Assembly (NCBI RefSeq): GCF_053078305.1
Contig: NZ_CP166879.1
Direction: 5' to 3' (one strand)
Length of the DNA stretch: 64,000 nucleotides
Below are positions 1,598 through 57,453 of the stretch, piece by piece. Both the position numbers and the translations under genes were made by a program. A model generated the notes under the pieces. The model was given only the letters and a program-made list of their open reading frames with translations, made no database searches and was not told where the DNA came from. Position 1 is the first letter of the stretch. Every line of letters begins with the position of its first letter.

Positions 1598-3970
1598 ATG
1601 AAGCGAGTTCTTATTCCTGGCGTCATTTTATGTGGCGCTGATGTGGCGCAGGCCGTCGATGACAAAAACATGTACATGCATTTTTTTGAAGAGATGACGG
1701 TCTATGCTCCTGTCCCTGTACCCGTAAACGGCAACACGCATTACACCAGTGAAAGCATCGAGCGTTTACCGACCGGGAATGGCAATATCAGCGATCTGCT
1801 GAGAACCAACCCTGCGGTACGCATGGATTCAACGCAAAGTACCTCGTTGAACCAGGGAGATATTCGCCCGGAGAAAATCTCTATTCACGGTGCGTCGCCC
1901 TACCAGAATGCCTATTTGATTGATGGTATTAGTGCCACTAATAACCTGAACCCAGCGAATGAGTCCGATGCCAGTAGTGCAACCAATATTAGCGGGATGT
2001 CACAGGGGTATTATCTTGATGTCAGCTTACTGGACAATGTGACGCTTTATGACAGTTTTGTGCCGGTTGAATTCGGTCGCTTCAATGGCGGGGTAATTGA
2101 TGCAAAGATCAAACGCTTCAACGCTGATGATAGCAGCGTGAAACTGGGTTATCGCACTACGCGTTCGGACTGGTTAACATCGCATATCGATGAGAATAAC
2201 AAGAGCGCATTTAATCAAGGTTCTTCAGGAAGTACTTATTACTCTCCAGATTTTAAAAAGAACTTTTATACCTTGTCGTTTAATCAGGAACTCGCTGATA
2301 ACTTTGGCGTTACCGCCGGTTTATCGCGCCGCCAGTCTGATATCACCCGCGCGGATTATGTTTCGAATGACGGCATTGTCGCCGGTCGGGCACAGTATAA
2401 AAACGTTATCGATACTGCATTGAGCAAATTTACCTGGTTTGCCAGCGACCGCTTTACCCACGATTTAACCTTAAAATATACCGGCTCCAGCCGTGATTAT
2501 AATACCAGCACCTTCCCGCAGTCTGATCGCGAAATGGGTAATAAATCCTATGGTCTGGCATGGGATATGGATACGCAGCTCGCATGGGCCAAACTACGTA
2601 CCACCGTTGGTTGGGATCATATTAGTGATTATACCCGTCACGATCATGACATCTGGTACACCGAACTTTCATGTACATATGGTGATATTACAGGGCGTTG
2701 CACCCGTGGCGGATTAGGACACATTTCCCAGGCTGTAGATAATTACACCTTCAAAACACGCCTGGACTGGCAAAAATTCGCCGTGGGTAATGTTTCGCAT
2801 CAACCCTACTTCGGTGCGGAATACATCTATTCCGATGCGTGGACTGAACGCCATAACCAGTCTGAATCCTATGTGATTAATGCTGCCGGAAAGAAAACTA
2901 ACCATACCATTTACCATAAAGGTAAAGGCAGCCTGGGAATTGACAACTACACACTGTATATGGCGGATCGCATTAGCTGGCGTAATGTGTCATTAATGCC
3001 CGGCGTGCGGTATGACTATGACAACTATCTGTCAAACCACAATATCTCCCCGCGCTTTATGACGGAATGGGATATTTTTGCTGATCAAACCTCAATGATT
3101 ACCGCAGGTTATAACCGTTACTATGGTGGGAATATTCTTGATATGGGATTACGTGATATCCGCAATAGCTGGACGGAATCGGTATCAGGCAATAAAACCC
3201 TGACGCGTTATCAGGATTTGAAAACGCCTTATAACGATGAACTGGCAATGGGATTGCAGCAGAAAATCGGTAAGAACGTTATTGCGCGTGCAAACTATGT
3301 TTACCGTGAAGCGCATGATCAAATCAGCAAAAGCAGTCGCACCGACAGCGCGACTAAAACCACCATTACTGAATATAACAACGATGGCAAAACCAAAACG
3401 CATTCGTTCAACCTCAGTTTTGAGCTGGCCGAACCCCTGCATATCCGCCAGGTAGATATTAACCCACAAATTGTCTTTAGCTATATCAAGAGCAAGGGCA
3501 ACTTGTCGTTAAACAATGGTTATGAGGAGAGCAATACCGGTGATAACCAGGTGGTTTATAACGGTAATCTTGTCTCTTACGATAGCGTTCCAGTGGCAGA
3601 TTTTAATAACCCATTAAAGATCTCCTTAAACATGGATTTCACGCATCAACCGAGCGGGTTAGTGTGGGCGAATACGCTGGCCTGGCAAGAAGCGCGTAAA
3701 GCTCGCATTATCCTGGGTAAGGCGAATGCGCAATACATCAGCGAATATTCAGATTACAAGCAGTATGTTGACGAAAAACTGGATAGCAGCCTGACCTGGG
3801 ACACCCGCTTGTCCTGGACGCCACAATTTCTGAAACAACAAAACCTGACGATCAGTGCCGATATTCTCAATGTACTGGATAGCAAAACCGCGGTTGATAC
3901 AACGAATACCGGTGTGGCGACCTACGCCAGTGGCCGTACTTTCTGGCTTGATGTCAGCATGAAATTTTAA
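1598..3970 (+). CDS. yddB: TonB-dependent receptor-like outer membrane protein
   Basis: 790 aa with N-terminal signal peptide and C-terminal aromatic residue; conserved position between yddA and pqqL. Confidence 0.85.
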   Translation: MKRVLIPGVILCGADVAQAVDDKNMYMHFFEEMTVYAPVPVPVNGNTHYTSESIERLPTGNGNISDLLRTNPAVRMDSTQSTSLNQGDIRPEKISIHGASPYQNAYLIDGISATNNLNPANESDASSATNISGMSQGYYLDVSLLDNVTLYDSFVPVEFGRFNGGVIDAKIKRFNADDSSVKLGYRTTRSDWLTSHIDENNKSAFNQGSSGSTYYSPDFKKNFYTLSFNQELADNFGVTAGLSRRQSDITRADYVSNDGIVAGRAQYKNVIDTALSKFTWFASDRFTHDLTLKYTGSSRDYNTSTFPQSDREMGNKSYGLAWDMDTQLAWAKLRTTVGWDHISDYTRHDHDIWYTELSCTYGDITGRCTRGGLGHISQAVDNYTFKTRLDWQKFAVGNVSHQPYFGAEYIYSDAWTERHNQSESYVINAAGKKTNHTIYHKGKGSLGIDNYTLYMADRISWRNVSLMPGVRYDYDNYLSNHNISPRFMTEWDIFADQTSMITAGYNRYYGGNILDMGLRDIRNSWTESVSGNKTLTRYQDLKTPYNDELAMGLQQKIGKNVIARANYVYREAHDQISKSSRTDSATKTTITEYNNDGKTKTHSFNLSFELAEPLHIRQVDINPQIVFSYIKSKGNLSLNNGYEESNTGDNQVVYNGNLVSYDSVPVADFNNPLKISLNMDFTHQPSGLVWANTLAWQEARKARIILGKANAQYISEYSDYKQYVDEKLDSSLTWDTRLSWTPQFLKQQNLTISADILNVLDSKTAVDTTNTGVATYASGRTFWLDVSMKF

Positions 3971-4014: not shown

Positions 4015-6810
4015 ATGGAGATAATTATGAGAAACCTCTGTTTCTTACTGACGTTAGTGGCAACTCTGTTGTTCCCCGGGCGGCTGATTGCCGCCGCCTT
4101 ACCGCAGGATGAAAAGTTAATTACCGGGCAACTGGACAATGGCTTGCGATATATGATTTATCCGCATGCTCATCCAAAGGATCAGGTAAATTTATGGCTG
4201 CAAATTCATACCGGTTCATTGCAGGAAGAAGACAATGAGCGCGGCGTGGCTCATTTTGTAGAACATATGATGTTTAACGGCACAAAAACATGGCCGGGTA
4301 ATAAAGTCATCGAAACATTTGAGTTAATGGGCCTGCGTTTTGGTCGCGATGTTAATGCCTATACCAGCTATGACGAAACGGTGTATCAGGTGAGTTTGCC
4401 AACTACGCAGAAACAAAATCTGCAACAAGTGATGGCAATCTTCAGTGAATGGAGTAATGCCGCAACCTTTGAAAAACTCGAAGTAGACGCTGAACGCGGC
4501 GTAATTACTGAGGAATGGCGTGCCCATCAGGATGCGAAATGGCGCACCTCTCAGGCGCGCCGCCCTTTCCTGCTGGCTAATACCCGTAATTTAGACCGTG
4601 AACCTATCGGCCTGATGGATACTGTCGCCACGGTCACACCGGCACAATTGCGCCAATTTTATCAACGCTGGTATCAACCAAATAATATGACCTTTATCGT
4701 GGTTGGCGATATCGACAGTAAAGAAGCGCTGGCGCTGATAAAGGATAATTTAAGTAAGCTTCCGGCTAACAAAGCAGCTGAAAATCGCGTCTGGCCGACA
4801 AAAGCCGAAAACCACCTGCGCTTTAATATCATTAATGATAAAGAAAACCGGGTGAACGGCATCGCACTCTATTATCGCCTGCCAATGGTACAAGTGAACG
4901 ATGAGCAAAGCTTTATCGAACAAGCTGAATGGAGCATGTTAGTTCAGCTGTTCAATCAACGTCTGCAGGAACGTATACAGTCGGGCGAGTTGAAGACTAT
5001 TTCTGGCGGCACTGCGCGCAGCGTTAGAATTGCACCCGATTATCAGTCGCTGTTTTTCCGTGTAAATGCACGAGACGATAATATGCAGGATGCTGCGAAT
5101 GCATTAATGGCAGAGTTGGCAACCATTGATCAGCATGGTTTTTCTGCTGAAGAACTCGATGATGTCAAATCTACCCGCCTCACCTGGCTGAAAAATGCGG
5201 TTGATCAGCAAGCTGAACGTGATTTACGTATGCTGACCAGTCGCCTGGCATCCAGCTCATTAAATAATACGCCGTTCTTGTCGCCGGAAGAGACATATCA
5301 ACTTTCGAAACGTCTGTGGCAGCAAATTACCGTGCAAAGTCTGGCGGAAAAATGGCAGCAGTTAAGAAAGAACCAGGACGCATTTTGGGAGCAAATGGTA
5401 AACAATGAGCTTGCCGCAAAAAAAGCATTGTCTCCTGCGGCTATCCTGGCGCTGGAAAAAGAGTACGCCAACAAAAAGCTGGCGGCTTACATCTTCCCAG
5501 GCAGAAATTTATCGTTAACAGTAGACGCTGACCCACAGGCGGAAATTAGCAGCAAAGAAACGCTGGCTGAGAATCTGACATCATTAACACTTTCCAATGG
5601 TGCCAGGGTTATTCTGGCAAAATCCGCGGGTGAAGAGCAAAAACTACAAATTATTGCCGTATCGAATAAAGGCGATTTAAGTTTCCCTGCGCAGCAAAAA
5701 TCACTTATCGCGCTGGCAAATAAAGCAGTTAGCGGAAGCGGCGTTGGCGAACTCTCCTCTTCCAGCCTGAAACGCTGGAGTGCGGAAAACTCGGTAACCA
5801 TGAGCAGTAAAGTCAGTGGCATGAATACGTTGCTCTCCGTTAGCGCGCGGACTAATAACCCTGAACCTGGTTTTCAGTTGATTAACCAGCGAATCACCCA
5901 CAGCACGATTAACGACAATATTTGGGCATCGCTACAAAATGCTCAAATTCAGGCGTTGAAAACGCTCGACCAGCGTCCAGCGGAGAAATTCGCCCAGCAG
6001 ATGTATGAGACGCGCTATGCTGATGACCGCACGAAATTACTGCAAGAAAATCAGATTGCACAGTTTACTGCCGCAGATGCGCTGGCTGCCGATCGCCAGT
6101 TGTTTTCATCTCCAGCGGATATCACGTTTGTCATTGTCGGTAATGTCGCAGAAGACAAACTCGTGGCGTTAATTACGCGTTACTTAGGATCAATCAAACA
6201 CTCTGATTCGCCATTAGCCGCAGGTAAACCATTAACTCGCGCGACGGACAACGCATCGGTTACTGTAAAGGAACAAAATGAACCTGTGGCACAGGTTTCA
6301 CAGTGGAAGCGTTATGATTCCCGGACACCTGTTAATCTGGCGACGCGTATGGCGCTCGATGCTTTTAACGTCGCACTGGCAAAAGATCTACGCGTTAATA
6401 TTCGTGAACAGGCATCTGGGGCATACAGCGTTTCTTCTCGCCTCTCGGTTGATCCTCAGGCCAAAGATATCAGTCATTTGCTGGCTTTTACTTGTCAACC
6501 AGAACGACATGATGAACTGTTAACGTTAGCGAATGAAGTGATGGTTAAGCGTCTGGCTAAAGGGATCAGTGAGCAAGAACTGAATGAATACCAGCAAAAC
6601 GTTCAGCGCAGCCTCGATATCCAACAGCGTAGCGTTCAACAATTAGCGAACACTATTGTAAATAGTCTTATTCAATATGACGATCCTGCAGCATGGACTG
6701 AGCAGGAGCAATTGTTGAAACAAATGACGGTAGAGAATGTTAACACTGCCGTTAAACAATATCTTTCTCATCCGGTAAATACTTATACTGGAGTATTATT
6801 GCCAAAATAA
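4015..6810 (+). CDS. pqqL: Periplasmic M16-family zinc metallopeptidase
   Basis: 931 aa, signal peptide, inverted zinc-binding motif HFVEHMMFNG; start could be the downstream Met (MRNLCF). Confidence 0.88.
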   Translation: MEIIMRNLCFLLTLVATLLFPGRLIAAALPQDEKLITGQLDNGLRYMIYPHAHPKDQVNLWLQIHTGSLQEEDNERGVAHFVEHMMFNGTKTWPGNKVIETFELMGLRFGRDVNAYTSYDETVYQVSLPTTQKQNLQQVMAIFSEWSNAATFEKLEVDAERGVITEEWRAHQDAKWRTSQARRPFLLANTRNLDREPIGLMDTVATVTPAQLRQFYQRWYQPNNMTFIVVGDIDSKEALALIKDNLSKLPANKAAENRVWPTKAENHLRFNIINDKENRVNGIALYYRLPMVQVNDEQSFIEQAEWSMLVQLFNQRLQERIQSGELKTISGGTARSVRIAPDYQSLFFRVNARDDNMQDAANALMAELATIDQHGFSAEELDDVKSTRLTWLKNAVDQQAERDLRMLTSRLASSSLNNTPFLSPEETYQLSKRLWQQITVQSLAEKWQQLRKNQDAFWEQMVNNELAAKKALSPAAILALEKEYANKKLAAYIFPGRNLSLTVDADPQAEISSKETLAENLTSLTLSNGARVILAKSAGEEQKLQIIAVSNKGDLSFPAQQKSLIALANKAVSGSGVGELSSSSLKRWSAENSVTMSSKVSGMNTLLSVSARTNNPEPGFQLINQRITHSTINDNIWASLQNAQIQALKTLDQRPAEKFAQQMYETRYADDRTKLLQENQIAQFTAADALAADRQLFSSPADITFVIVGNVAEDKLVALITRYLGSIKHSDSPLAAGKPLTRATDNASVTVKEQNEPVAQVSQWKRYDSRTPVNLATRMALDAFNVALAKDLRVNIREQASGAYSVSSRLSVDPQAKDISHLLAFTCQPERHDELLTLANEVMVKRLAKGISEQELNEYQQNVQRSLDIQQRSVQQLANTIVNSLIQYDDPAAWTEQEQLLKQMTVENVNTAVKQYLSHPVNTYTGVLLPK

Positions 6811-6816
6811 TAACAG

Positions 6817-6847
6817 CCCCGTCAACACATCGTTGGCGGGGATTTTA
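6817..6847 (+). terminator. Rho-independent terminator after pqqL
   Basis: Hairpin ccccgtcaac/gttggcgggg (one G-U pair) followed by a T-rich tail. Confidence 0.6.
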
Positions 6848-7072
6848 GCAATATTCGCTATTTTTATGTAATAATTTTATAAATGCGTTCAAAATAATAA
6901 CCAAGTACTAATAGTGATATTTTAAGGTCTGATTTTTACGTGATAATTCAGGAGGCACAGAAAGCGCATAAAAATAACAACATAAAACACCTTACCACCA
7001 CCCAAGAATTCTCTATTGCATTGTTTTTTAATGAAAAAATATTATTTCAACAATATCTCACGATAAATAACA

Positions 7073-7092
7073 TTAGGATTTTGTTATTTAAA
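7073..7092 (+). promoter_or_regulatory. GAD box (GadE/GadX-type activator site) in the gadB promoter
   Basis: Exact 20-mer TTAGGATTTTGTTATTTAAA about 80 bp upstream of the gadB ATG, inside an AT-rich leader. Confidence 0.75.
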
Positions 7093-7171
7093 CACGAGTC
7101 CTTTGCACTTGCTTACTTTATCGATAAATCCTACTTTTTTAATGCGATCCAATCATTTTAAGGAGTTTAAA

Positions 7172-8572
7172 ATGGATAAGAAGCAAGTAACGGATTTAAG
7201 GTCGGAACTACTCGATTCACGTTTTGGTGCGAAGTCTATTTCCACTATCGCAGAATCAAAACGTTTTCCGCTGCACGAAATGCGCGACGATGTCGCATTT
7301 CAGATTATCAATGACGAATTATATCTTGATGGCAACGCTCGTCAGAACCTGGCCACTTTCTGCCAGACCTGGGACGACGAAAATGTCCACAAGTTGATGG
7401 ATTTATCCATTAACAAAAACTGGATCGACAAAGAAGAATATCCGCAATCCGCAGCCATCGACCTGCGTTGCGTAAATATGGTTGCCGATCTGTGGCATGC
7501 GCCTGCGCCGAAAAATGGTCAGGCCGTTGGCACCAACACCATTGGTTCTTCCGAGGCCTGTATGCTCGGCGGGATGGCGATGAAATGGCGTTGGCGCAAG
7601 CGTATGGAAGCTGCAGGCAAACCAACGGATAAACCAAACCTGGTGTGCGGCCCGGTGCAAATCTGCTGGCATAAATTCGCCCGCTACTGGGATGTGGAGC
7701 TGCGTGAGATCCCTATGCGCCCCGGTCAGTTGTTTATGGATCCGAAACGCATGATTGAAGCCTGCGACGAAAATACCATCGGCGTGGTGCCGACTTTCGG
7801 CGTGACCTACACCGGTAACTATGAGTTCCCGCAACCGCTGCACGATGCGCTGGATAAATTCCAGGCCGACACCGGTATCGACATCGACATGCACATCGAC
7901 GCCGCCAGTGGTGGCTTCCTGGCACCGTTCGTCGCCCCGGATATCGTCTGGGACTTCCGCCTGCCACGTGTGAAATCGATCAGTGCTTCAGGCCATAAAT
8001 TCGGTCTGGCTCCGCTGGGCTGCGGCTGGGTTATCTGGCGTGACGAAGAAGCGCTGCCGCAGGAACTGGTGTTCAACGTTGACTACCTGGGGGGTCAGAT
8101 TGGTACTTTCGCCATCAACTTCTCCCGCCCGGCGGGTCAGGTAATTGCACAGTACTATGAATTCCTGCGCCTCGGTCGTGAAGGCTACACCAAAGTACAG
8201 AACGCCTCTTACCAGGTTGCCGCTTATCTGGCGGATGAAATCGCCAAACTGGGGCCGTATGAGTTCATCTGTACCGGTCGCCCGGACGAAGGCATTCCGG
8301 CGGTTTGCTTCAAACTCAAAGATGGTGAAGATCCGGGATACACCCTGTACGACCTCTCTGAACGTCTGCGTCTGCGCGGCTGGCAGGTTCCGGCCTTCAC
8401 TCTCGGCGGTGAAGCCACCGACATCGTGGTGATGCGCATTATGTGTCGTCGCGGCTTCGAAATGGACTTTGCTGAACTGTTGCTGGAAGACTACAAAGCC
8501 TCCCTGAAATATCTCAGCGATCACCCGAAACTGCAGGGTATTGCCCAACAGAACAGCTTTAAACATACCTGA
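7172..8572 (+). CDS. gadB: Glutamate decarboxylase beta (PLP-dependent)
   Basis: 466 aa starting [22 protein letters not shown]-lysine context [10 protein letters not shown]; the ORF-track start at 7103 is an upstream in-frame extension. Confidence 0.95.
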
Positions 8573-8727: not shown

Positions 8728-10263
8728 ATGGCTACATCAGTACAGACAGGTAAAGCTAAGCAGCTCACATTACTCGGCTTTTTTGCCATAACGGCATCGA
8801 TGGTAATGGCTGTTTATGAATACCCTACCTTCGCAACATCGGGCTTTTCATTAGTCTTCTTCCTGCTATTAGGCGGGATTTTATGGTTTATTCCCGTGGG
8901 ACTTTGTGCTGCGGAAATGGCCACCGTCGACGGCTGGGAAGAAGGTGGTGTCTTCGCCTGGGTATCAAATACTCTGGGGCCGAGATGGGGATTTGCAGCG
9001 ATCTCATTTGGCTATCTGCAAATCGCCATTGGTTTTATTCCGATGCTCTATTTCGTGTTAGGGGCACTCTCCTACATCCTGAAATGGCCAGCGCTGAATG
9101 AAGACCCCATTACCAAAACTATTGCAGCACTCATCATTCTTTGGGCGCTGGCATTAACGCAGTTTGGTGGCACGAAATACACGGCGCGAATTGCTAAAGT
9201 TGGCTTCTTCGCCGGCATCCTGTTACCTGCATTTATTTTGATTGCATTAGCGGCTATTTATCTGCACTCCGGTGCCCCCGTTGCTATCGAAATGGATTCG
9301 AAGACCTTCTTCCCTGACTTCTCTAAAGTGGGCACCCTGGTAGTATTTGTTGCCTTCATTTTGAGTTATATGGGCGTAGAAGCATCCGCAACCCACGTCA
9401 ATGAAATGAGCAACCCAGGGCGCGACTATCCACTGGCTATGTTACTGCTGATGGTGGCGGCAATCTGCTTAAGCTCTGTTGGTGGTTTGTCTATTGCGAT
9501 GGTCATTCCGGGTAATGAAATCAACCTCTCCGCAGGGGTAATGCAAACCTTTACCGTTCTGATGTCTCATGTGGCACCGGAAATTGAGTGGACGGTTCGC
9601 GTGATCTCCGCACTGCTGTTGCTGGGTGTTCTGGCGGAAATCGCCTCCTGGATTGTTGGTCCTTCTCGCGGGATGTATGTCACAGCGCAGAAAAACCTGC
9701 TGCCAGCGGCATTCGCTAAAATGAACAAAAATGGCGTACCGGTAACGCTGGTCATTTCGCAGCTGGTGATTACTTCTATCGCGTTGATCATCCTCACCAA
9801 TACCGGTGGCGGTAACAACATGTCCTTCCTGATCGCACTGGCGCTGACGGTGGTGATTTATCTGTGTGCTTATTTCATGCTGTTTATTGGCTACATTGTG
9901 TTGGTTCTTAAACATCCTGACTTAAAACGCACATTTAATATCCCTGGTGGTAAAGGGGTGAAACTGGTCGTGGCAATTGTCGGTCTGCTGACTTCAATTA
10001 TGGCGTTTATTGTTTCCTTCCTGCCGCCGGATAACATCCAGGGTGACTCTACCGATATGTATGTTGAATTACTGGTCGTTAGTTTCCTGGTGGTACTTGC
10101 CCTGCCCTTTATTCTCTATGCTGTTCATGATCGTAAAGGCAAAGCGAATACCGGCGTCACTCTGGAGCCAATCAACAGTCAGAACGCACCAAAAGGTCAC
10201 TTCTTCCTGCACCCGCGTGCACGTTCACCACACTATATTGTGATGAATGACAAGAAACACTAA
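8728..10263 (+). CDS. gadC: Glutamate:GABA antiporter (APC family)
   Basis: 511 aa polytopic membrane protein immediately downstream of gadB. Confidence 0.95.
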
Positions 10264-10393: not shown

Positions 10394-11713
10394 ATGGATA
10401 TCTGCTCCCGAAACGAGAAATTAGCGATTAGAAGACCAGCGATACTGGTTGCACTGGCACTTTTACTGTGTAGTTGTAAAAGCACGCCTCCAGAGTCCAT
10501 GGTGACACCACCAGCAGGTTCAAATCCACCAGCCACGACGCAACAATCGTCACAACCGATGCGTGGCATCTGGCTGGCCACGGTGTCTCGCCTCGACTGG
10601 CCACCGGTTTCCTCGGTTAACATTAGTAACCCCACCAGCCGGGCCCGTGTACAACAACAGGCGATGATCGACAAACTGGATCATCTGCAACGTCTCGGTA
10701 TAAACACGGTCTTTTTCCAGGTCAAGCCGGACGGTACCGCCCTGTGGCCTTCAAAAATTTTGCCGTGGTCCGATCTTATGACCGGTAAGATTGGTGAAAA
10801 TCCGGGTTACGATCCGCTGCAATTTATGCTCGACGAAGCCCACAAGCGTGGGATGAAAGTACACGCCTGGTTTAACCCCTATCGCGTATCGGTTAATACG
10901 AAGCCCGGTACTATCAGGGAACTGAATAGCACCCTGTCTCAACAACCGGCGAGCGTCTATGTGCAACACCGCGACTGGATCAGAACGTCCGGCGATCGCT
11001 TTGTCCTCGACCCGGGCATCCCTGAGGTTCAGGACTGGATCACATCAATAGTCGCAGAAGTGGTTTCCCGCTATCCGGTAGATGGCGTGCAGTTTGACGA
11101 CTATTTCTATACTGAGTCACCGGGTTCACGGCTAAATGATAACGAAACGTACCGCAAATACGGAGGCGCATTTGCGTCAAAAGCAGACTGGCGGCGCAAC
11201 AATACTCAGCAGTTAATTGCAAAGGTATCGCACACCATTAAAAGCATTAAGCCGGGAGTCGAATTTGGTGTTAGCCCGGCAGGCGTGTGGCGTAACCGAT
11301 CACACGATCCGCTCGGTTCCGATACCCGAGGCGCGGCAGCCTATGACGAATCCTACGCTGACACCCGTCGATGGGTGGAACAAGGATTGCTGGATTACAT
11401 TGCTCCCCAAATTTACTGGCCGTTCTCACGGAGTGCCGCGCGTTATGACGTGTTGGCAAAATGGTGGGCGGATGTCGTTAAACCGACCAGGACCCGCCTG
11501 TATATCGGTATCGCCTTCTATAAAGTGGGTGAACCTTCAAAGATAGAGCCAGACTGGATGATTAACGGCGGCGTACCGGAACTGAAAAAGCAGCTCGATC
11601 TTAACGATGCGGTACCCGAAATTAGCGGCACCATCTTGTTCCGTGAGGACTATCTGAATAAACCGCAGACTCAACAAGCGGTCAGCTATCTGCAAAGTCG
11701 TTGGGGCAGTTAA
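10394..11713 (+). CDS. yddW: Lipoprotein, glycosyl hydrolase-like (GH10-like) family
   Basis: 439 aa with signal/lipobox-like N-terminus (LLLCSC); conserved position between gadC and dosC. Confidence 0.85.
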   Translation: MDICSRNEKLAIRRPAILVALALLLCSCKSTPPESMVTPPAGSNPPATTQQSSQPMRGIWLATVSRLDWPPVSSVNISNPTSRARVQQQAMIDKLDHLQRLGINTVFFQVKPDGTALWPSKILPWSDLMTGKIGENPGYDPLQFMLDEAHKRGMKVHAWFNPYRVSVNTKPGTIRELNSTLSQQPASVYVQHRDWIRTSGDRFVLDPGIPEVQDWITSIVAEVVSRYPVDGVQFDDYFYTESPGSRLNDNETYRKYGGAFASKADWRRNNTQQLIAKVSHTIKSIKPGVEFGVSPAGVWRNRSHDPLGSDTRGAAAYDESYADTRRWVEQGLLDYIAPQIYWPFSRSAARYDVLAKWWADVVKPTRTRLYIGIAFYKVGEPSKIEPDWMINGGVPELKKQLDLNDAVPEISGTILFREDYLNKPQTQQAVSYLQSRWGS

Positions 11714-28604: not shown

Positions 28605-31600
28605 TTACGCCTTCTCGATGTTGACTAAGAACGCTTTATATTCCGGCGTTTGCGAGTTTGCATCACCGACATTCGGCGTCAGAGTGTTAGCGATATAACC
28701 TTTACGCGCGACACCCTCAAAGCCCCAGTGGATTGGAATACCCACCGTTTCAACCTGCTGACCGTTTACATTCAGCGGTTTCAGACGGCGCGTTACCACA
28801 GCCACCGCGCGGATAAAGCCACGCTTGCTTGAGACAGTGACACGATCGCCATTATTAATGCCTTTCGCCGCCGCCAGCGTTTCGCTGATTTCCACAAACT
28901 GTTCCGGCTGAGCAATTGCGTTGAGCAATGCGTGCTTGGTCCAGGTGTGGAAGTGCTCGGTCAGACGATAGGTCGTACCCACATACGGGAACTGCTCTTT
29001 TTTACCCATCCGCAGCGCGTCTTGTTCATACAGACGAACGACCGGGTTAGACACCACGTTCGGATGCAGCGGATTAGTGCCCAGCGGCGTTTCAATCGGC
29101 TCGTAGTGTTCCGGGAACGGACCTTCCGCCATTTTGTTGATGGCAAACAGGCGTCCCATCCCTTCCGGCTGCATAATAAACGGCCCGGTTGGCGTACCCG
29201 GTGCGGCATTGCCGAAGTCCGGAATATCGTTACCCGTCCACTTGCTGCCGTTCCACTGGATCAGCATCCGTTTCGGATCCCACGGTTTACCGTTGATATC
29301 CGCCGAAGCACGGTTGTACAGCACGCGACGGTTGAGCGGCCACGCCCAGGCCCATCCCAGCGTATTCCCCAGACCGGACGGGTCGGAGTTATCGCGGTTA
29401 GCCATCTGGTTGCCCTGCTCTGTCCAGCTACCGGTGTAGATCCAGCAAGAGGATGCGGTTGTACCGTCATCACGCAGATGCGCAAAGCTACTCAGCAACT
29501 GACCTTTCTTCGCAATCAGCACGCCATTTGCGTCATAGAGATCTTCCAGCGCATAGCCGTTGTTCTCTTTTGCCACTTCGTCAGATTGCGGTTCGTGCGG
29601 CTGCTTGTAGTTCCAGCTCATCTTCATCAGCGGTTCTACGCCTTTACCACCTTCGGCCTGGTACAGCTCGCGCAGATGATGGTAGATACCCGCCAGAATT
29701 TCGCCGTCGTTACGCGCTTCGCCCGGCGCGTCCTGACCTTTCCAGTGCCACTGCAACCAGCGACCGGAGTTAGCGATAGAACCATCTTCTTCGGCAAAGC
29801 AGGTCGAAGGCAGACGGAATACTTCAGTCTGAATAGACGCCGGATCGACATCGTTCGACTCGCCGTGGTTCTGCCAGAAGGTTGAGGTTTCAGTCACCAG
29901 CGGATCGATAACCACCATGTACTTCAGTTTGCTCAGGCAGCTCACCACTTTGTTTTTGTCCGGGAAGGACGCAACCGGGTTAAAGCCCTGGCAGAAATAA
30001 CCGGTGACTTTGCCTTCATCCATCATGTTGAAATACTTGATGACGTCGTAGGTCTGGTCCCACTTCGGCAGCCAGTCATAGCCCCAGTTGTTCTCTTTCT
30101 GCGCGGCATCGCCATAGAAAGATTTCATCAGGCTAACGAAGAACTTCGGATAGTTGCTCCAGTAGTTCACCTGATCAGCCAGCGTCGCTTTCGGCGTGTT
30201 CGCTTCCAGATACGACTGCAAATCAACCTGTTTTTCTGACGGCAGCGTCAGATAACCTGGCAGGCTGGTAGAGAGCAGACCTAAGTCAGTCAGACCCTGA
30301 ATGTTGGAGTGACCACGCAATGCATTCACGCCGCCACCGGCCATACCCATGTTACCGAGCAGCAACTGGATCATCGCCATAGTACGGATGTTCTGCGCAC
30401 CCACGGTGTGCTGCGTCCAGCCCAGCGCGTACAGGAAGGTGGTTGTGCGATCCGGTGCGCTGGTGGAGGCCAGCACTTCACACACTTTCAGGAAGTCGGC
30501 TTTTGGCGTACCACAGATGTTTTCAACAACGTCCGGCGTGTAGCGGGAAACGTGCGCTTTCAGCAGGTTCCACACACAGCGCGGATGAGTCAGTGTTTCA
30601 TCGCGTTTTGCATAGCCGTTTTCATCGAACTGATAGTTCCAGGACGACTTATCGTACTGGCGTTTTTCAGCGTCGTAGCCGCTGAACAGACCGTCTTCGA
30701 AAGCAAAATCATCACGCACCAGCAGGCTGGCGTTGGTGTAATGCTTAACGTATTCAGCGTTGATTTTGTCGTTTTCGATCAGGTAGCGCAAAACGCCAGA
30801 CAGGAACGTAATGTCCGTACCGGAACGAATAGGTGCGTAAATATCCGCTACAGAAGCGGTACGCGTAAAACGGGGATCGACAACGATCAAGGTTGCATCG
30901 TTGTTGTTTTTCGCTTCCATCGCCCAGCGGAAACCGACGGGATGCGCTTCAGCAGCGTTACCGCCCATTACCATTACGACGTTAGCGTTTTTGATATCCA
31001 CCCAGTGGTTGGTCATCGCACCGCGACCAAATGTTGGAGCAAGACTTGCTACCGTTGGTCCGTGTCAGACGCGCGCCTGGTTGTCTACCGCCAGCATCCC
31101 GAGGGAGCGGGCAAATTTCTGGGTCAGCATCCCGGTTTCGTTGCTGGCACCGGAGGCACACAGCATACCGGTAGAAAGCCAACGGTTTACCGTTACACCC
31201 TGCTCGTTCTTTTCAATAAAGTTAGCGTCACGGTCAGCTTTCATCAGCTTAGCAATACGGGAGAATGCTTCTTCCCAGCTAATGCGCTGCCATTTGTCAG
31301 AACCTGGCGCACGATATTCCGGGTAGCGCAGACGGTTTTCGCTGTTGACGTAATCCAGCAAACCGGCCCCTTTCGGGCACAGCGCACCACGGCTTACCGG
31401 ATGATCCGGGTCACCTTCAATGTGATAAATCGCTTCTCTGGCGTTTTTTGCGCCATCACCCAGGCTATACATCAATAGCCCGCAACCTACGGAACAGTAT
31501 GTGCAGGTGTTACGGATCTCTTTAGCGCGTAATAATTTGTAGTTTCGCGCCTGAGCCAGTGCTTGCTTCGGGGCAAAGCCCAATGCCGCTACTGTTGTTC

Positions 31601-44650: not shown

Positions 44651-45327
44651 TTCAGTATCTGAACGTCTTTTTTTACGATATCTACCCGTACATTTGTGCG
44701 ACGGTGTTTTTCCTCGGCAGCTGGCTGCGCTACGACTATGGCCAGTACACCTGGCGCGCCTCCTCAAGTCAAATGCTCGATAAACGCGGGATGGTGATAT
44801 GGTCGAATCTGTTCCATATCGGCATTTTGGGGATCTTCTTCGGGCACCTGTTCGGCATGTTAACGCCGCACTGGATGTACGCGTGGTTTTTGCCAGTGGC
44901 AGCGAAACAACTAATGGCGATGGTGCTCGGCGGTATTTGCGGTGTGTTGACGTTGATTGGCGGCGCAGGACTGCTGTGGCGCAGGCTGACAAATCAGCGC
45001 GTGCGTGCCACTTCCACTACGCCGGATATCATCATCATGAGCATTTTGCTGGTCCAGTGTCTGTTGGGGCTAAGCACCATACCGTTTTCAGCACAGTATC
45101 CTGATGGTAGCGAAATGTTGAAGCTGGTGGGTTGGGCGCAAAGCATTGTCACTTTCCGTGGTGGATCGTCAGAGATGCTTAACGGTGTAGCGTTCGTCTT
45201 CCGCCTGCATCTGGTGTTGGGAATGACCATCTTCCTGCTCTTCCCGTTCACTAGACTGGTGCATGTGTGGAGCGCCCCGTTTGAGTACTTTACTCGTCGG
45301 TATCAGATTGTGCGCTCGCGGCGATAA
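44647..45327 (+). CDS. narV: Respiratory nitrate reductase 2 gamma subunit (cytochrome b)
   Basis: 226 aa membrane protein; 4-bp overlap with narW. Confidence 0.93.
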
Positions 45328-45344
45328 TTCTGCTTTTCAAAACC

Positions 45345-45382
45345 GCCTGTTTTTCTTGTCATGTGTTGTCAGAAAAACAGGC
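45345..45382. terminator. Bidirectional hairpin between narV and the convergent 403-aa gene
   Basis: gcctgttttt ... aaaaacaggc 10-bp stem, followed by TTTTC on the plus strand. Confidence 0.6.
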
Positions 45383-45391
45383 TTTTCAACC

Positions 45392-46603
45392 TTAATGATT
45401 ATCTTCAAACTCTTCCAAAACATATTGAGCATGAAATTGAATACAGGGCCAGGATGAAACTAAACCAGCGCGAGCAGTGGGTACTTCATTGGCGGTGATG
45501 GTGCAAAACCCTCTTCCTGGTGCCATTTCTTTTGCTATGGCTTCAACCAGCTCTGGATGATGACTAAGGACAAACTCTAACGGGGTGTAATCTAAGGGTA
45601 AATGACGTCCGTGGTCCCGAAATGCCAGATATGGAGCTGTTACTCCACGAAGCAAAATTTCTACAGGGAGCTGGGAAATGCGTTCTACCAATAAATTCAT
45701 ATGCCCAAGCCGCGCTATAGCCGCTGCAGCCCAACAGCGGTTACTCCCATCGGCTGTTTGATCGTCCAGCAGGCTTGTCAAAACAGCAATCACATCCTCA
45801 TTAGATTCATTAATTTCTGCAATCAATTTACAGGCATTCCATGCTTTGTCTGCATTTTTAACTTCTTGCAGCAAAGCAGGTAACGCCAGTTGACCTAGTT
45901 GTTTGAGTAATACTTCGTAATCGTCTAAAAGTAGACCCGGCGTTTTTCTGCCAAATATTTGCGCGATTAATTCTGCTATCCGTGCTTGTGAAGGCAAACT
46001 TTTCAGATATTGCCTCTCCTGTTCAGCCTGAGAATATTGAGGAAAATATTGCAATATTTGTTTTTTTGTCAGACTTAACGGGATCAACTCACCAACCTCA
46101 TCAGAGGCTATGGCGATAAAGTTTTTCTCCACTACCCCTTCACGTAAGAGTTGTAGTCGTGCTTTTTTGGCTGCTTTCGGAAAAACACGCAGGAATTGCG
46201 CGTACACCTCATACCAGGCATCAAATGTTCCATTAATAGCAGCGAACTCATGGCATTCATTAGCCCATTGTTCGCATTCTTCGTTAGGTTCATCATTGTA
46301 CTTATGGTCCGCAGGCGACCAGCGTAAGTCCTGTGTGAGTTTTTCTACGTTTTGTGTAAATCCATTTTTCTGATAAGCAGTAACAATAGAGGCCAGGCTT
46401 TCCTCAGTGCCAACTGCCAGACAAGGCCAGTCAATGATGTCCCCATCCCCATAAAAACAATGAAACATGGCACCATAGATATGTTGGCATGGGTGTTCCT
46501 GATGTATATGTTTAACGGAAGCTACCATGTAATTAATGGCAGCCGTTTCCATCCCTTTCCAGTCAAATTGTACTTGCTTCATAAAGCGGTCCGTGTAAGG
46601 CAA
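45392..46603 (-). CDS. Hypothetical protein; C-terminal region resembles HEAT/armadillo-type helical repeats
   Basis: Uninterrupted 403-aa frame convergent with narV; no recognisable catalytic motif. Confidence 0.6.
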   Translation of the reverse strand: MPYTDRFMKQVQFDWKGMETAAINYMVASVKHIHQEHPCQHIYGAMFHCFYGDGDIIDWPCLAVGTEESLASIVTAYQKNGFTQNVEKLTQDLRWSPADHKYNDEPNEECEQWANECHEFAAINGTFDAWYEVYAQFLRVFPKAAKKARLQLLREGVVEKNFIAIASDEVGELIPLSLTKKQILQYFPQYSQAEQERQYLKSLPSQARIAELIAQIFGRKTPGLLLDDYEVLLKQLGQLALPALLQEVKNADKAWNACKLIAEINESNEDVIAVLTSLLDDQTADGSNRCWAAAAIARLGHMNLLVERISQLPVEILLRGVTAPYLAFRDHGRHLPLDYTPLEFVLSHHPELVEAIAKEMAPGRGFCTITANEVPTARAGLVSSWPCIQFHAQYVLEEFEDNH

Positions 46604-46718
46604 TATAGAGAGTTAACCATTTTATCCTGATAGTTATTTCAACATGACTTGCCAAGGATTAATTCAGAAAAGTGCCCTAAACAGGCTATGATAGTTCTCC
46701 AGTCACAGGAGAACGTTA

Positions 46719-47612
46719 ATGAAACCGCAGGTTTACCACGTCGATGCTTTTACCTCTCAACCATTTCGCGGCAATTCTGCCGGTGTTGTTTTCCCCGCCG
46801 ATAATCTTAGCGAAGCGCAAATGCAGCTTATCGCCCGCGAATTAGGTCATTCGGAAACTGCTTTTCTGCTGCACAGCGACGACAGCGATGTGCGCATCCG
46901 CTACTTTACGCCAACGGTTGAAGTTCCGATTTGTGGTCACGCGACAGTAGCTGCGCACTATGTACGTGCGAAGGTGTTAGGTTTAGGAAATTGCACGGTC
47001 TGGCAAACATCGCTGGCAGGAAAACATCGCGTGACTATCGAAAAGCACCACGATGATTATCGTATTTCGCTGGAACAAGGTACGCCGGGCTTTGAGCCAC
47101 CGCTGGAAGATGAAACACGTGCGGCGATTATCAACGCGCTTCATCTCACTGAGGACGATATTCTGCCAGGCTTGCCAATTCAGGTGGCAACAACAGGACA
47201 CTCAAAAGTGATGATCCCGTTGAAACCAGAAGTGGATATCGACGCCCTTTCGCCTGATCTTGCTGCGCTGAGCGCTATCAGCAAACAGATTGGCTGCAAT
47301 GGTTTCTTCCCGTTCCAGATCCGCCCAGGCAAAAACGAAACCGATGGTCGCATGTTCTCGCCTGCGATTGGTATTGTGGAAGATCCGGTGACTGGCAATG
47401 CCAATGGCCCGATGGGTGCATGGTTGGTACATCACAACGTATTGCCCCACGATGGCAAGGTGCTGCGTGTTAAAGGCCATCAGGGGCGCGCATTGGGGCG
47501 TGACGGCGTGATTGAAGTGACGGTGACAATTCGTGATAACCAACCGGAAAAAGTCACCATTTCTGGCGCGGCGGTGATTTTGTTTCATGCCGAATGGGCA
47601 ATTAAACTCTGA
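46719..47612 (+). CDS. yddE: PhzF-family isomerase-like protein
   Basis: 297 aa from MKPQVYHVDAFTSQPFRGNSAGVVF. Confidence 0.92.
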   Translation: MKPQVYHVDAFTSQPFRGNSAGVVFPADNLSEAQMQLIARELGHSETAFLLHSDDSDVRIRYFTPTVEVPICGHATVAAHYVRAKVLGLGNCTVWQTSLAGKHRVTIEKHHDDYRISLEQGTPGFEPPLEDETRAAIINALHLTEDDILPGLPIQVATTGHSKVMIPLKPEVDIDALSPDLAALSAISKQIGCNGFFPFQIRPGKNETDGRMFSPAIGIVEDPVTGNANGPMGAWLVHHNVLPHDGKVLRVKGHQGRALGRDGVIEVTVTIRDNQPEKVTISGAAVILFHAEWAIKL

Positions 47613-49613: not shown

Positions 49614-50594
49614 CCAGGGCAAGATTACGAAAGCCTTCTCCCCGCAAGGACTGACGCCAGGTAGTTTCTGTCCATGGCTGCTTTTCGCATCTTACGTCTT
49701 AACCCTGCCTTGAATACCTTATCATTCGTCAAAATATTAATAGCAATGTGCCGTATCCCTGAAAATAATTCTGCTGCATTTCCTCTTCTTATTTTGCAGT
49801 CGTCTTCATTCATTACCACGTCCAGACGCCAGTGCAGCTTATTCTCCACGTGCCAGTGGTTTCGGATTGCTGTGGCGAACTTCTCTGCGGTTAAATCAGC
49901 AGAACTGATATAATATCTGACCGTCATTTCTGGCTCTTTCTTTTGTTCTGCTATTATTGAGCGAAATGAGACTGCCATGCATAATTTCTTCAGCCCTTTC
50001 CATTCAAACGTGAAATCAATAAGTTCATCAGGGATATCGCAGACAATATGGAGACGGATTTTAATGACATGAATCGCTCCCCTGCGGCGACTCTTGTCAT
50101 AAGAGTGCCGGAGCGTTTTTCCATCAATTGCAATGACGTCTTTATCATCTGAAGAATGGCAGTCACGCATCCAGTTAATAAAGCACTCGTGAAATTTTGC
50201 AGGACTGATACAGGATACAACTCTGGCAATGGTATCGTGAACAGGAATACCATTTTCAAAATCACCATATTGCTTCAAAAAATCGAGATGTGTTTCCCCA
50301 AAATCCTCTATATCTTCCCAACCTTCTGCACCAGAAACAACGGCACAAATAATCAACAGTAGAATATCCGATAATTTATGTTCCACTTTCCAGGCTTGTC
50401 TGTAATCGGGGATAATAGAAATATGTTCCATCAATTTTTTAAGTTCCATTTTGTTTCCTTAATTATGTAAGGAGTATTTGATCATGTATAAGCAATAAAA
50501 AACAGCTTTAGGTAATGAGGAACATATCAATTTTTAAACATAAAATGCGAATTATTTAGTACAAAAAGTGTACTTCCGATGATCTTTCCCTGCC
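49614..50594 (-). mobile_element. ydcC: H-repeat (ISAs1-family) element copy 1, transposase with internal deletion
   Basis: 274-aa frame (49625..50449) aligns to both ends of the roughly 378-aa H-repeat transposase but lacks about 100 central residues (junction [17 protein letters not shown]). Confidence 0.75.
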
Positions 50595-50862
50595 ATTAAA
50601 TAATGTCTTATTTGACCTTGCCAACATACAACAAAATAATTGAAATATATTCAAAATTAATTTAAACATTCATCAGGCGTCCTTTTCTAAAAAACCTAAT
50701 CATTTAATGGTTAAATTACAATCAAACAAACAAAGTAAACTGGAATTATAGTTGTGGTGCACTTCACGATTTTAGCATTCTTGCTCCTACATTTATACTC
50801 TCTGCCGCGGAAATTTGTTCTCGAAACTTAACTAAACCCAATCAATCATCCTTGCCTTATCG

Positions 50863-51366
50863 TTACTTGAATTTATCAAGACATTTATCATTGCTGACAC
50901 TTTCAATATTTATATGATATACAGTTCCTGTGTTTGAGATATATACTTCCTTAAGCTTATCAGTTTTACTCTCATTATTATAAAAGTAGCCCCCGATAAT
51001 TTTATTCTTCTTTGATATATAAGTGACAGTGTCAGTATGAACTCCACCATTTATTGTCATAATGAATGAGGCATCCAAGTTCATCGTACTTTCCCCCTTA
51101 AAATATATTTTACCATTAGAAATCACTTTGGTCTCAGAAACACCGTTAGGCTCGTCATTACTAATTAATATAAGTAAATCTACCATTTCGGATTTTTTAT
51201 CTCTTTCTTTATAACCACCAATATCATCCAGGATATTATTTGACACTTTTCCACAAAGCATCACTGAGTAATTATTCAAATTTTTGAGTTGAGAGCACTT
51301 TGCCACAAAAGAGAATGAAATAAATATCAAACCTACCGAAATGATTATTGTTTTTTTAAAATTCAT
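50863..51366 (-). CDS. Exported small protein, candidate immunity protein for the upstream effector
   Basis: 167 aa with N-terminal signal peptide MNFKKTIIISVGLIFISFSFVAKCS; 4 bp downstream of the effector stop; about 27% GC. Confidence 0.55.
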   Translation of the reverse strand: MNFKKTIIISVGLIFISFSFVAKCSQLKNLNNYSVMLCGKVSNNILDDIGGYKERDKKSEMVDLLILISNDEPNGVSETKVISNGKIYFKGESTMNLDASFIMTINGGVHTDTVTYISKKNKIIGGYFYNNESKTDKLKEVYISNTGTVYHINIESVSNDKCLDKFK

Positions 51367-51370
51367 TGTT

Positions 51371-53449
51371 TTAAAGAATCCTTATGTAATTAAGTGGAGG
51401 TGTTATTTCATCATTCAATACATACCAAGAATGCTCAAATGCTGGCCAACGCACTAAATCGAAGCCATCTGCTGCTGGGTTTATTCGCCGTGTAACTTCT
51501 CTGGCATCTGACAAACTACATCCTTTATCCGCCCAATAATTAACGCCTAAACTACCACTAGGTGTCAATCGATGGCTTACCATTATGTATTTTTGCTTAC
51601 TTGCCCAAAAGTATCCCCCGGCATCGCAAGAAAAATAGGCATTTTCAACTGGGAGTTGGTTATTGGGTTCTGTAGTAAAAAAATCATCATCTGACGGATT
51701 TCTATACTTTCCATAATTTCTATAATTCTCACGACCAGTTAGATGTATGGTACCTCTGCCTTTAAATCTTGCACCATCACCAACAACATTATTTCCAAGC
51801 TTAAGTCCCTGTTCTGTTCCTGGCTCATACATATCAAAATAACTCGAATCACCATTCTCTATAAAAGACGCAAATCTGCCTGTTTCTCTCGCCATCTGAC
51901 CGAAATAATGCGCAATCCGCAATGGGGTTGTAATTAAGTACTTCCTTAGTGACTTTGACAGTTCATTTTTCAACCCTGCAGGTCTTATCACCTCACCACT
52001 GCTATTTTGTCCTTGGCTAGTAATCCGCTCAATTAGAGTGTCTTTACTTAATGGTCTTGTAAGTTCTGATGTCATGGGATAAGCATTTTGATAACGTCTT
52101 ACCACACTTATAATATCATTTTCTCCTAACCACCCACATTTCCTGAAATGTGCAATAAACTGCCTGGGATCAAAATGCCATACACGCCTGGCAGGTAACG
52201 GATTATCTACCAAACAAAGCGCCTTACAGTGTTCTATCAGCAAATCCAGGTCAGGCTCTGTCATCGGCTTACTCAATACGTCATTGGGTGATTTCAGCCA
52301 CTCAAACCGTGATTCCACGGTGGCGCTGTCCCATTCTAGCGGAAAATGACAAATCATCCGACTTAGGTCATTGCGGGTTGTACACAGGATTGTTGGTGAA
52401 TTGCACTGGCTGTTGGTGTCCGCATCATCGTTCACCAGTTTCCACCCTGTCCAGTGTGGAAAATCACCGTCGCTGTAAACCCTGATATCTCTCGCCCCTA
52501 AGTTAACAACGCCTTTACCCTGTGGCGTATTGATTGTTCGCCACAGCGGCGCATCCGCCGGGACTAATTCTTCATATTCTGTATTAACAACCCGACCAAA
52601 ACGCAGCATCTCATAACCGGCACTTGGGCTTTTCGGATAGAGTTGCAGCGCGTAGGAATAGAGATTGTATTCATAATCCTTACCATCAGCATTAATCAAG
52701 GGAGAACCTACTTCAGTATAGGTATCACTCAGCACTTCATGCTGCTGACGCGTCACCATCGTACAATTGCCTTTATCAAAACTCATTGTGACATACAATG
52801 GCACGCTGGTTCTTTGTACCGGACTGTTGTTCGCAAGCGAGTTTTCTTCCGGCATGTCCCCATAAATCGGTGTTCCGGCAGGGAGATAAAAATGACTATC
52901 ACCGTAAACCACATCAGTTCGTCCATCTTTATTCAGGTCTGTTTCCGGTGATATTCTTCCTGTGATTTTCTGAATGTTTTCATCATCACAAAAAATCTGA
53001 AAATGAAAGGCGTTCTGTCCGTCCACCATCCCTGCTGCACCAACCGGTTCTTTCCGGTATAGCGTGTTTCCCGGCTGCACATTACTGTCAATGCTTCTCA
53101 GGTGCATATATAATGAGTAATAGACGATTTTACCCTCTTCTCCACTACCGATTTCTGTTTCATGTTTTATCAGAACATAGCCTTTATCCGTAACTCCGTT
53201 ATAATTTAACGGAGGAACTGTATTTTCCGCTGGTTCTGGCTGGCGTATTGAAATAACCTTCCCATCGGCAATACACCTAACAGTCTCTGACAGATTGCCG
53301 TTCAAATGAACTCCACCATGCCAAGAACGACCGCTATTCATTGGGAAATTTCTTTCTGGATCAACAGACATCATTCTGTTTACCCAGTCAGAGTCTTTTT
53401 CAGTGTCTATATGCGCATGCAATATTGGAGGGCTGATTATCATTATCAA
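51371..53449 (-). CDS. Candidate T6SS peptidoglycan-hydrolase effector: M23-like domain plus GH19/lysozyme-like C-terminal domain
   Basis: M23-like block HGGVHL…ADGKVIS…YYSLYMHLRS…GAAGMVDGQNAFHFQIF; GH19-like block YFGQMARETG…GDGARFKGRGTIHLTGRENYRNYG; first gene downstream of vgrG. Confidence 0.6.
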   Translation of the reverse strand: MIMIISPPILHAHIDTEKDSDWVNRMMSVDPERNFPMNSGRSWHGGVHLNGNLSETVRCIADGKVISIRQPEPAENTVPPLNYNGVTDKGYVLIKHETEIGSGEEGKIVYYSLYMHLRSIDSNVQPGNTLYRKEPVGAAGMVDGQNAFHFQIFCDDENIQKITGRISPETDLNKDGRTDVVYGDSHFYLPAGTPIYGDMPEENSLANNSPVQRTSVPLYVTMSFDKGNCTMVTRQQHEVLSDTYTEVGSPLINADGKDYEYNLYSYALQLYPKSPSAGYEMLRFGRVVNTEYEELVPADAPLWRTINTPQGKGVVNLGARDIRVYSDGDFPHWTGWKLVNDDADTNSQCNSPTILCTTRNDLSRMICHFPLEWDSATVESRFEWLKSPNDVLSKPMTEPDLDLLIEHCKALCLVDNPLPARRVWHFDPRQFIAHFRKCGWLGENDIISVVRRYQNAYPMTSELTRPLSKDTLIERITSQGQNSSGEVIRPAGLKNELSKSLRKYLITTPLRIAHYFGQMARETGRFASFIENGDSSYFDMYEPGTEQGLKLGNNVVGDGARFKGRGTIHLTGRENYRNYGKYRNPSDDDFFTTEPNNQLPVENAYFSCDAGGYFWASKQKYIMVSHRLTPSGSLGVNYWADKGCSLSDAREVTRRINPAADGFDLVRWPAFEHSWYVLNDEITPPLNYIRIL

Positions 53450-53590
53450 TAGTCCTTATTAAGCTTATAAAACATGTAACGAGTATGAATTATTCATTCA
53501 CAGAGCATCTCTGCTTAGAAAGCAGAAAATCACAGTATTATTGTATTATTACTACCGTCATCCGTTATCTTTATCTGAATGATTATCCCA

Positions 53591-55737
53591 CTACGAGAAC
53601 ATGAACTTCACTCTGGTCTCATCATTACCGATATCATCATCAGTATTACTATCCGTATCATTAGTGACTAAAGTGTTCAGGACAGTGGGTTGCAGTGTCG
53701 GTACCGGTGTCCCCGGACTCCCCCCACCATTAAGATTTATCTTCGGCCCCACTATATCCACGCCGCCCGGCTGAATAACGATAAACGAGCCACCCACCTT
53801 CAGGCTTATCCGGCTGCTGCTCTCCAGCACGATATCCCCGTCCACCTTTATCCCCAGCGCGCCACTCACCTTCCTCGCCAGGTCCCCCTTCACCACCAGG
53901 CTGTGTTTCCCCTCCACCAGACTGATATGGTTCCCCGTCGTCTTATGCTCCTGCTTCCCTTCCACCGTCACTTTACGGTCGTTTCTGACGTACAGACCGT
54001 CATCGTGACTCACGCTCACCGTCCGGTCATTCGTCACCTTCAGAGTCTGGTCATTACGTACTGTGATACGCCGGTCGTTCGCCACCGTGATACTCTGGTC
54101 GTGGCCCCCTCTTTTTTTGTACCGACCTGAACCGTCTGGCCCTTCACCACCGTTATCTTCTGGTCGTTACCAATGGTTTCCGTGTGGTCATGCTTCACGT
54201 CCGTCGTCCGGTCGTTGAGCACTTCCGTATCCATGTTCTTCTGCGCATGGATATACACCTGCTCATTACTGGTGGCGTCTTCAAACCGCAGCTCGTTAAA
54301 TCCGCTTCCTTTATAGGTTTTTGACCGGATGGTCATCTGCGTCTTCGTTCCCGGCAGGTCGCCCGGCGAACGGTTGTCCTCATGGTACGTCCGCCCCATG
54401 ATTATCGGCTGGTCCGGGTCGCCGTTCAGGAAGTCCACTATCACCTCCTGACCCACCCGCGGTATCGCCAGATTACCGAACCCCGGCCCCGCCCACGCCT
54501 GCGATACACGCACCCAGCATGAACTCGCCTCCGTCATCCCGTGATAACGGTCCCAGTGGAACTTCACCCGTACCCGGCCATGTTCATCGCAGAAGATTTC
54601 CTCTCCCGCAGGCCCGGTGACAATGGTGCTCTGTGGCCCGTCCACCTTCGGTTTGCTTTGCAGCCGTGGACGCCACGTCCGGTCTGCCGGTATCACCTCT
54701 AACTGATTTCCCAGTGTGGTTCCTCTCCCCTGGCTGCCGTGCAACGCCTGCGGCTGGCTTCCTGACAGTATGCTCTGTACCACCTGCCATTCACGGTTCA
54801 GCATCTTCTGCGGATGCCCCGTCAGCGTAAACCGCGTTCCCGGCCACAGCTTCGGTGAATTACTCTGCCCTGTGGCCTTTTCCGCATCACTGCGCAGGCT
54901 GTCCATCTGATACAGCGTGAAATCCTTGCCGTGCTGCTCATCCTTGAACCTTCCCGGATAATCAAATATCTCGTACTGCGCGTGCTGTCCGTTCAGCCTC
55001 TCACCCTGCTGTTCGTATATCCCCGGCCAGTCCGGCACCTTAAACGTGTAATCCTGACTCTGCACCGACGACGGGCGGACATGCGCCTCATAACGGAACA
55101 TACTGAGACACTCCGTCTCCGCTCCTGCCGATGTGTCCGGGTTAAACGGAAGCTCTCCCGCCTGTGACAGCCCCGCCACATCGTCGCACAGCGTCAGCTT
55201 CTGCTCCGGGCTGTCCGCCGCAAACCGCTCAAAGAAGAAAATCCCCTCCTCCGCCCACAGCCGGGACAGAAACGCCAGGTCGCTCTCTCCGTACTGGACA
55301 CAGAACTCCCGCGCCGGATGGTCCTCATAAAACAGCGGCGTCCACTCCGTGACGCCGTTCTCGTTCAGTAACGTGGCCGATATCGTCCGGATATCCTGCT
55401 GCTGAAAAATACGAAAGTTCTGCCGCAGCCCGCACCGCCATAACGGCGGCTCAATACGCAGGTGATAACGCATCTGCCAGCCGTTGTTCTCCTGCATGCC
55501 AAAGCCCGCCACCACGCCAGTGACATAACGCAGCGGAATGACGCCCTGCCAGATGGTCAGCGTTGCGTTCTTCTCCAGCAGCATCTCCGCCGTCTGCATA
55601 AAAGAGTCGCTGGCAACATCCACACTCATCACAAACGGATAAGACTGGTTCTGGATTAACCTGAAATTCACCACTGCAAAGGTGTCCGGCTCCTGGCCGT
55701 CAACCTCCAGCGTAAAGCGAAGACCTTTTAAGGACAT
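53591..55737 (-). pseudogene. vgrG: vgrG (T6SS spike) copy 1, frameshifted
   Basis: ORFs 54040..55737 and 53591..54085 are consecutive VgrG segments in different frames; shift maps to the C5 run at 54105-54109 (N-frame KKEGATT, C-frame GGHDQSITVANDRR; copy 2 reads KKEGGHDQ). Confidence 0.75.
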
Positions 55738-55755
55738 AAATACCTCTCTGGTATA

Positions 55756-57376: not shown

Positions 57377-57453
57377 CTTGTTTATTAGGTATATACCATA
57401 AATACTGAGTATTTTATTGTGCTATTTGTTTATTAAAAATTTGCGAGCAATAA

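Follow-up and report, generated by a model that had tools for sequence, protein, structure and literature searches.

The locus considered here raises a simple question: when a 20-bp sequence known from glutamate decarboxylase promoters is found upstream of gadB, which regulators does it speak for? The stretch of DNA analysed (64,000 nucleotides of contig NZ_CP166879.1, RefSeq assembly GCF_053078305.1; hereafter the window) is E. coli chromosome, and the 20-mer TTAGGATTTTGTTATTTAAA occurs in it exactly at 7073–7092 on the plus strand. A sequence-only reading had called this a canonical GAD box in the gadB promoter and had taken it to imply that the strain retains the GadE, GadX, and GadW input of acid resistance, with the regulators themselves lying outside the window. 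We argue that 7073–7092 is almost certainly the GAD box of the E. coli gadBC promoter, i.e., the cis-acting activator site of GadE-RcsB. The box, its place, and its operon are textbook and already known; our account departs from the earlier one in the regulators that act through it.

The genes around the box identify the operon. Their order in the window is yddA, yddB (1598–3970), pqqL (4015–6810), gadB, gadC, digH (10394–11713), dosC, and dosP, which is the K-12 order at 1.57 Mb. On the plus strand, gadB (7172–8572) encodes an intact glutamate decarboxylase B of 466 aa and gadC (8728–10263) an intact glutamate:GABA antiporter of 511 aa, each with 100% protein identity to its K-12 counterpart. 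Because the decarboxylase shares 100% of its residues with K-12 GadB but 98.9% with GadA, the gene is gadB, and gadA was ruled out as the downstream gene. With pqqL before it and gadC after it, the box thus lies in the gadB promoter, as the sequence-only reading had it. The pqqL-gadB intergenic regulatory region (6811–7171, plus strand) is AT-rich, with a GC content of 22–34%, and polymorphic among E. coli strains. It is matched, as a 371-bp region, in 5404 of 5426 complete E. coli genomes, and the annotation of relatives places it between pqqL and gadB. Among complete E. coli genomes none equals the window; the pig isolates 1504D004 and 1604D011 come nearest, matching its first 25 kb at 99.7% identity. 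When the window was scanned against Rfam, the SECIS element of fdnG was the only hit, with none in the gadB leader or the intergenic region. That element (SECIS_3, 84 bits) lies inside fdnG at 31012–31070 on the minus strand and is expected for formate dehydrogenase-N.

Several properties of the 20-mer itself support its assignment as a GAD box. The match at 7073–7092 is the only one on either strand of the window, even when up to three mismatches are allowed, and at that tolerance dinucleotide-preserving shuffles give a chance expectation of 0.01 matches. It lies 80–99 bp 5′ of the gadB ATG (7172), upstream of a glutamate decarboxylase gene and inside the AT-rich intergenic region. The GAD box is said to have been first defined as a 20-bp cis-acting element by Castanie-Cornet and Foster in 2001. 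The window copy is letter for letter the sequence given as a characterised GadE site in PMC4918353, and it includes the conserved G of TTAGGA, the position altered in the M1 mutant. The same 20-mer stands in the same place in K-12 PgadB and PgadA, so the description of the box as canonical holds.

The layout of the promoter from box to start codon can be read against K-12. All 99 bases from the GAD box through to the ATG align without a difference to K-12 PgadB. In PMC2887963 the gadA primers gadAup and gadAdown start at −101 and end at +24, respectively, which puts the gadA box at −72 to −53 and the gadA ATG at +28. Because the box-to-ATG segment equals that of K-12 PgadB, with equal spacing, we infer that the window box spans −72 to −53, with its centre at −62.5, relative to a gadBC transcription start at 7145 (plus strand). 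This start has the spacing of gadA in PMC2887963, is carried over from K-12 by identity, and lies 27 nt 5′ of the ATG. A −35-like TTGCTT, read from the sequence, occupies 7109–7114 on the plus strand, 16 bp past the end of the box. This agrees with PMC2887963, which places the GAD box 16 bp upstream of the −35 element and describes it as a 20-bp consensus whose centre lies 63 bp before the transcription starts of gadA and gadBC. A spacer of 17 bp leads to a −10-like TACTTT (7132–7137, plus strand), a putative assignment made from its spacing to the −35 element and the start, and a C at −14 is directly 5′ of it. An RcsB-box-like element, CGATAAATCCTACT, lies at about 7122–7135 on the plus strand, with approximate boundaries, and is identical to that of K-12 PgadB. 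The RcsB box was described for gadA as a low-affinity RcsB repressor site, conserved in gadB except for a C replacing G at its left end (PMC2887963). A Shine-Dalgarno sequence, AAGGAG, can be read at 7160–7165.

A consensus scan of the plus strand upstream of gadB found no sigma-70-like promoter. We read this result as the mark of a weak core promoter that probably needs an activator or sigma-S; the alternative that no promoter exists 5′ of gadB was considered and set aside, since the scan result fits a weak activator-dependent promoter.

Comparison with named promoters gives the same picture. K-12 PgadB shares with the window the 20-mer, the 99 box-to-ATG bases, the 27-nt leader, the pqqL neighbour, and GadB and GadC, and differs from it only in the upstream part of the intergenic region. 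The gadA promoter of the acid fitness island likewise carries the 20-mer, equally far from its transcription start. It also shares the RcsB-box/−10 block GATAAATCCTACTTTTTTA and the Shine-Dalgarno region with the window gadB promoter, whereas the flanks directly beside the box differ and are paralogue-specific.

To place the box in a wider context, the exact 20-mer was scanned for in one genome per species (100,044 species, 298 Gb). A random 20-mer would be expected to match ∼0.5 times in a sample of this size, and more often in AT-rich genomes. The scan returned 11 loci, eight of them in Escherichia: two copies in each of two GTDB E. coli representatives, two in Escherichia sp. E1V33, and one each in E. 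whittamii and E. albertii. At all eight, the box lies 79–80 bp 5′ of a gadA- or gadB-like ATG, and upstream of a gad gene the exact 20-mer was found in Escherichia only. The remaining three loci are in MAGs of Lentisphaeria and Bacteroidales (L017, 143–162; L018, 6379–6398; L020, 4178–4197). Since these contigs have no gad gene near the match and unrelated flanks, we regard them as chance matches; a transferred gad promoter was ruled out for all three.

We aligned the eight Escherichia promoters with that of the window and with K-12 PgadA and PgadB. In this 11-promoter alignment, which covers four Escherichia species, the GAD box forms exactly 20 invariant columns and is the longest invariant block, while the adjoining 10–15 bases on each side are paralogue- and species-specific. 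Further downstream, the CTTGC core of the −35-like hexamer is invariant and the GAT(A/T)AATCCTAC of the RcsB-box-like element is nearly so. Three divergent E. coli PgadB alleles are changed at 7093–7099 and upstream of 7062 but not within the box. Conservation extends across the complete E. coli genomes, 5385 of 5426 of which match the 40-mer 7063–7102 in megablast. Such a match requires an exact 28-mer, and any 28-mer of this segment spans 7075–7090; the central 16 bases of the box are therefore exact in at least 5385 genomes. Genomes without an exact 28-mer over the box number between 19 and 41 of the 5426, and all 40 bases are kept in 3650 records. The box is thus conserved in orthologous and paralogous promoters alike, in the manner of purifying selection, and at the level of sequence comparison these data show that precisely these 20 bases are under strong evolutionary constraint. 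A by-product is a clean phylogenetic footprint, in which the 20 published bases are invariant and the bases adjoining them vary freely.

Which protein the constraint serves is indicated by work in K-12. The GAD box is bound by the GadE-RcsB heterodimer, and GadE alone fails to bind it (PMC2887963). At K-12 gadA, this binding was characterised by EMSA, DNase I footprinting, and lacZ fusions, and a G-to-C change in the left half of the box (M1, TTAGGA) abolishes both binding and GadE-dependent activation (PMC2887963). ChIP-exo at K-12 gadBC places the centre of the GadE peak at −62.5 and GadX peaks at +66, −184, and −225, with no GadW peak recorded there (PMC4918353 supplementary tables). The GadE peak (P3, 1570144–1570175 in older K-12 coordinates) would correspond to 7066–7097 on the plus strand of the window, which covers the GAD box. 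For this conversion we took the K-12 genome versions to be offset by 1976 bp, a value that reproduces all four reported distances from the transcription start within 1 bp. The same offset would put the two upstream GadX peaks (−184 and −225) at 6899–6980. Deletion of gadE lowers gadB from 2532 to 29 FPKM, a more than 50-fold change (PMC4918353 supplements). A second deletion-mutant table (supplementary file 4 of PMC4918353) records a fall from 2532 to 1670 FPKM; we take this table to describe the gadX deletion because the paper states that activation by GadX is less than 2-fold.

Sites for GadX and GadW, two AraC-family regulators, share this regulatory region and help to activate gadBC, but they have another sequence, another place, and another protein family than the GAD box. 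Our positions for them are those given by the ChIP-exo tables and the motif of PMC4918353. According to Tramonti et al. (2006, 2008), as cited in PMC4918353, such sites follow the motif AtGtcTGATtTttatattat. A GadX/GadW-type motif, AGGTCTGATTTTTACGTGAT, is present at 6925–6944 on the plus strand (about −220 to −201), with one mismatch to AKGKCTGWTWTTWWYMYVAK and in a form identical to K-12, and it falls inside 6899–6980, the predicted equivalent of the GadX peaks. A second match in the window, at 51315–51334, was dismissed as chance level. The GAD box itself contains no match to AKGKCTGWTWTTWWYMYVAK with up to two mismatches. The short GadE motif from ChIP-exo, TTARGAWWWWAAATA, has no match in the window, the GAD box included, with up to one mismatch, and thus describes the canonical box poorly.

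By analogy with K-12, the GadE-RcsB heterodimer, composed of two LuxR/FixJ-type helix-turn-helix proteins, would bind the GAD box and recruit or stabilise RNA polymerase on the weak core (TTGCTT, 17 bp, TACTTT). In acid and in stationary phase, GadB and the glutamate/GABA antiporter GadC would then be switched on. The same GadE-RcsB activation probably operates in the window strain as in K-12.

The sequence-only reading invites a different view, namely that the box is a shared operator through which GadE, GadX, and GadW all act on the same 20 bases. In the work that PMC4918353 and PMC2887963 cite, both GadX and GadW do control the gad system and bind in the regulatory regions of gadA and gadBC, and at gadA the GadX sites come near the box (about −106 and −127, with the box at about −64; PMC4918353). 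At gadBC, however, the GadX sites are further from the box than at gadA, with all three peaks well away from the GadE peak and GadW without one, and the GadX/GadW motif matches 6925–6944 and not the box. Moreover, PMC2887963 depicts the GadXW box in its model as an element distinct from the GAD box, and the loss of gadX alters gadB less than 2-fold where the loss of gadE alters it more than 50-fold. We consider a shared operator very improbable, and largely refuted already by these published data. GadX and GadW exert their effect at sites elsewhere and for the most part via gadE. The GadE part of the claimed input therefore stands and the GadX/GadW part does not; the claimed list of regulators also lacked RcsB, the partner of GadE at the box and obligatory there (PMC2887963).

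Two further explanations would deny the box a present role. One holds that the 20 bases persist only through gene conversion between gadA and gadB, or match by chance in AT-rich DNA, with no selection on a binding site. GadA and GadB are indeed about 99% identical, the region is AT-rich, and three unrelated MAG contigs share the 20-mer by chance. Yet the flanks are paralogue- and species-specific where the 20 bases themselves vary neither between the paralogues nor among the four species, and a conversion tract would not end exactly at the edges of the box in every lineage. In addition, only 0.01 matches would be expected in the window by chance even with three mismatches, and mutation of the box abolishes GadE-dependent activation at gadA (PMC2887963), so that we find this account next to impossible to maintain. 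The other explanation is that the site is intact but without effect, a relic in a strain in which gadE, rcsB, or rpoS has been lost or mutated. The window holds nothing that bears on these trans factors, and 17 of the 5426 complete genomes lack gadE, as 17 lack gadXW. Against this, both gadE and gadW-gadX are present at ≥80% coverage in 5409 of the 5426 genomes (99.7%), the nearest complete relative (99.7% identity over 25 kb) has a full acid fitness island, and the amino-acid sequences of GadB and GadC are those of K-12. Together with the unchanged core promoter, the last point argues for continuing selection, and we judge a relic extremely improbable. The GadE-RcsB activator site thus remains our reading of 7073–7092, and nothing found here speaks directly against it.

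The regulators themselves are encoded elsewhere, as had been stated: tblastn with K-12 GadE, GadX, and GadW as queries (E ≤ 1e−3) finds none of them in the window. The step from the box to retained regulators survives in altered form, since a cis site does not prove that its trans factors are kept; their presence in the window strain is nonetheless likely on population grounds, because gadE and gadXW occur in 99.7% of complete E. coli genomes. We used strain 1504D004 as a proxy for the gadA promoter and the regulators of the window strain. It carries the full island gadA-gadX-gadW-mdtFE-gadE-hdeDAB, in which gadA is preceded by an identical GAD box. In its acid fitness island (38523–47475 of the locus examined, L004), a chu/shu haem-uptake cluster is inserted between yhiD and dctR. 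This cluster suggests that the window lineage may be chuA-positive and so not K-12-like in phylogroup.

The intergenic region is strikingly polymorphic among E. coli, especially at 7000–7047 and 7093–7099, while GadB and GadC are 100% identical to K-12. Across its 371 bp, 20 records are at least 99% identical to the window and 1396 are at 90–95%. This variation ends at the edges of the GAD box and the core promoter. Relative to K-12, the window has a polymorphic patch at 7000–7047 (about −145 to −98), flanked by the GadX sites on one side and the GAD box on the other, and four SNPs at 6901, 6955, 6963, and 6980; all of the differences fall outside the GAD box and the GadX/GadW motif. It is conceivable, though we think it improbable, that the patch and the SNPs under the GadX footprint alter silencing by H-NS or GadX-dependent anti-silencing. 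If so, gadBC expression in this lineage would be set apart from that of K-12 despite an identical core promoter.

Other parts of the window hold features of separate interest. Between pptA and yncG (49625–62500) are two tandem orphan T6SS cargo modules with interspersed ISAs1 copies. The one contains PAAR, vgrG, M23 peptidase, and a small ORF; the other contains PAAR, vgrG/tssI, DUF2169, a PAAR-like gene, and DUF4279. Two ORFs, at 53591–54085 and 54040–55737, make up the first vgrG, which is thus split as in the frameshifted annotation of strain A16. The modules are rare, with 50001–64000 covered to at least 80% in only 4 of 5426 complete E. coli genomes. In addition, LRR effector-like ORFs occupy 34288–36871, between an ompC-like porin gene (33024–34124) and narU. 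They include an espR1-like gene (35594–36871), and the shorter ones are annotated as partial in a relative.

For the gad system, the finding has little significance beyond annotation, and its main use is a corrected site assignment, in which the box reports input from GadE-RcsB and not from GadX or GadW. Like about 99% of E. coli, the strain has a gadBC acid-resistance operon that is intact and canonically wired.
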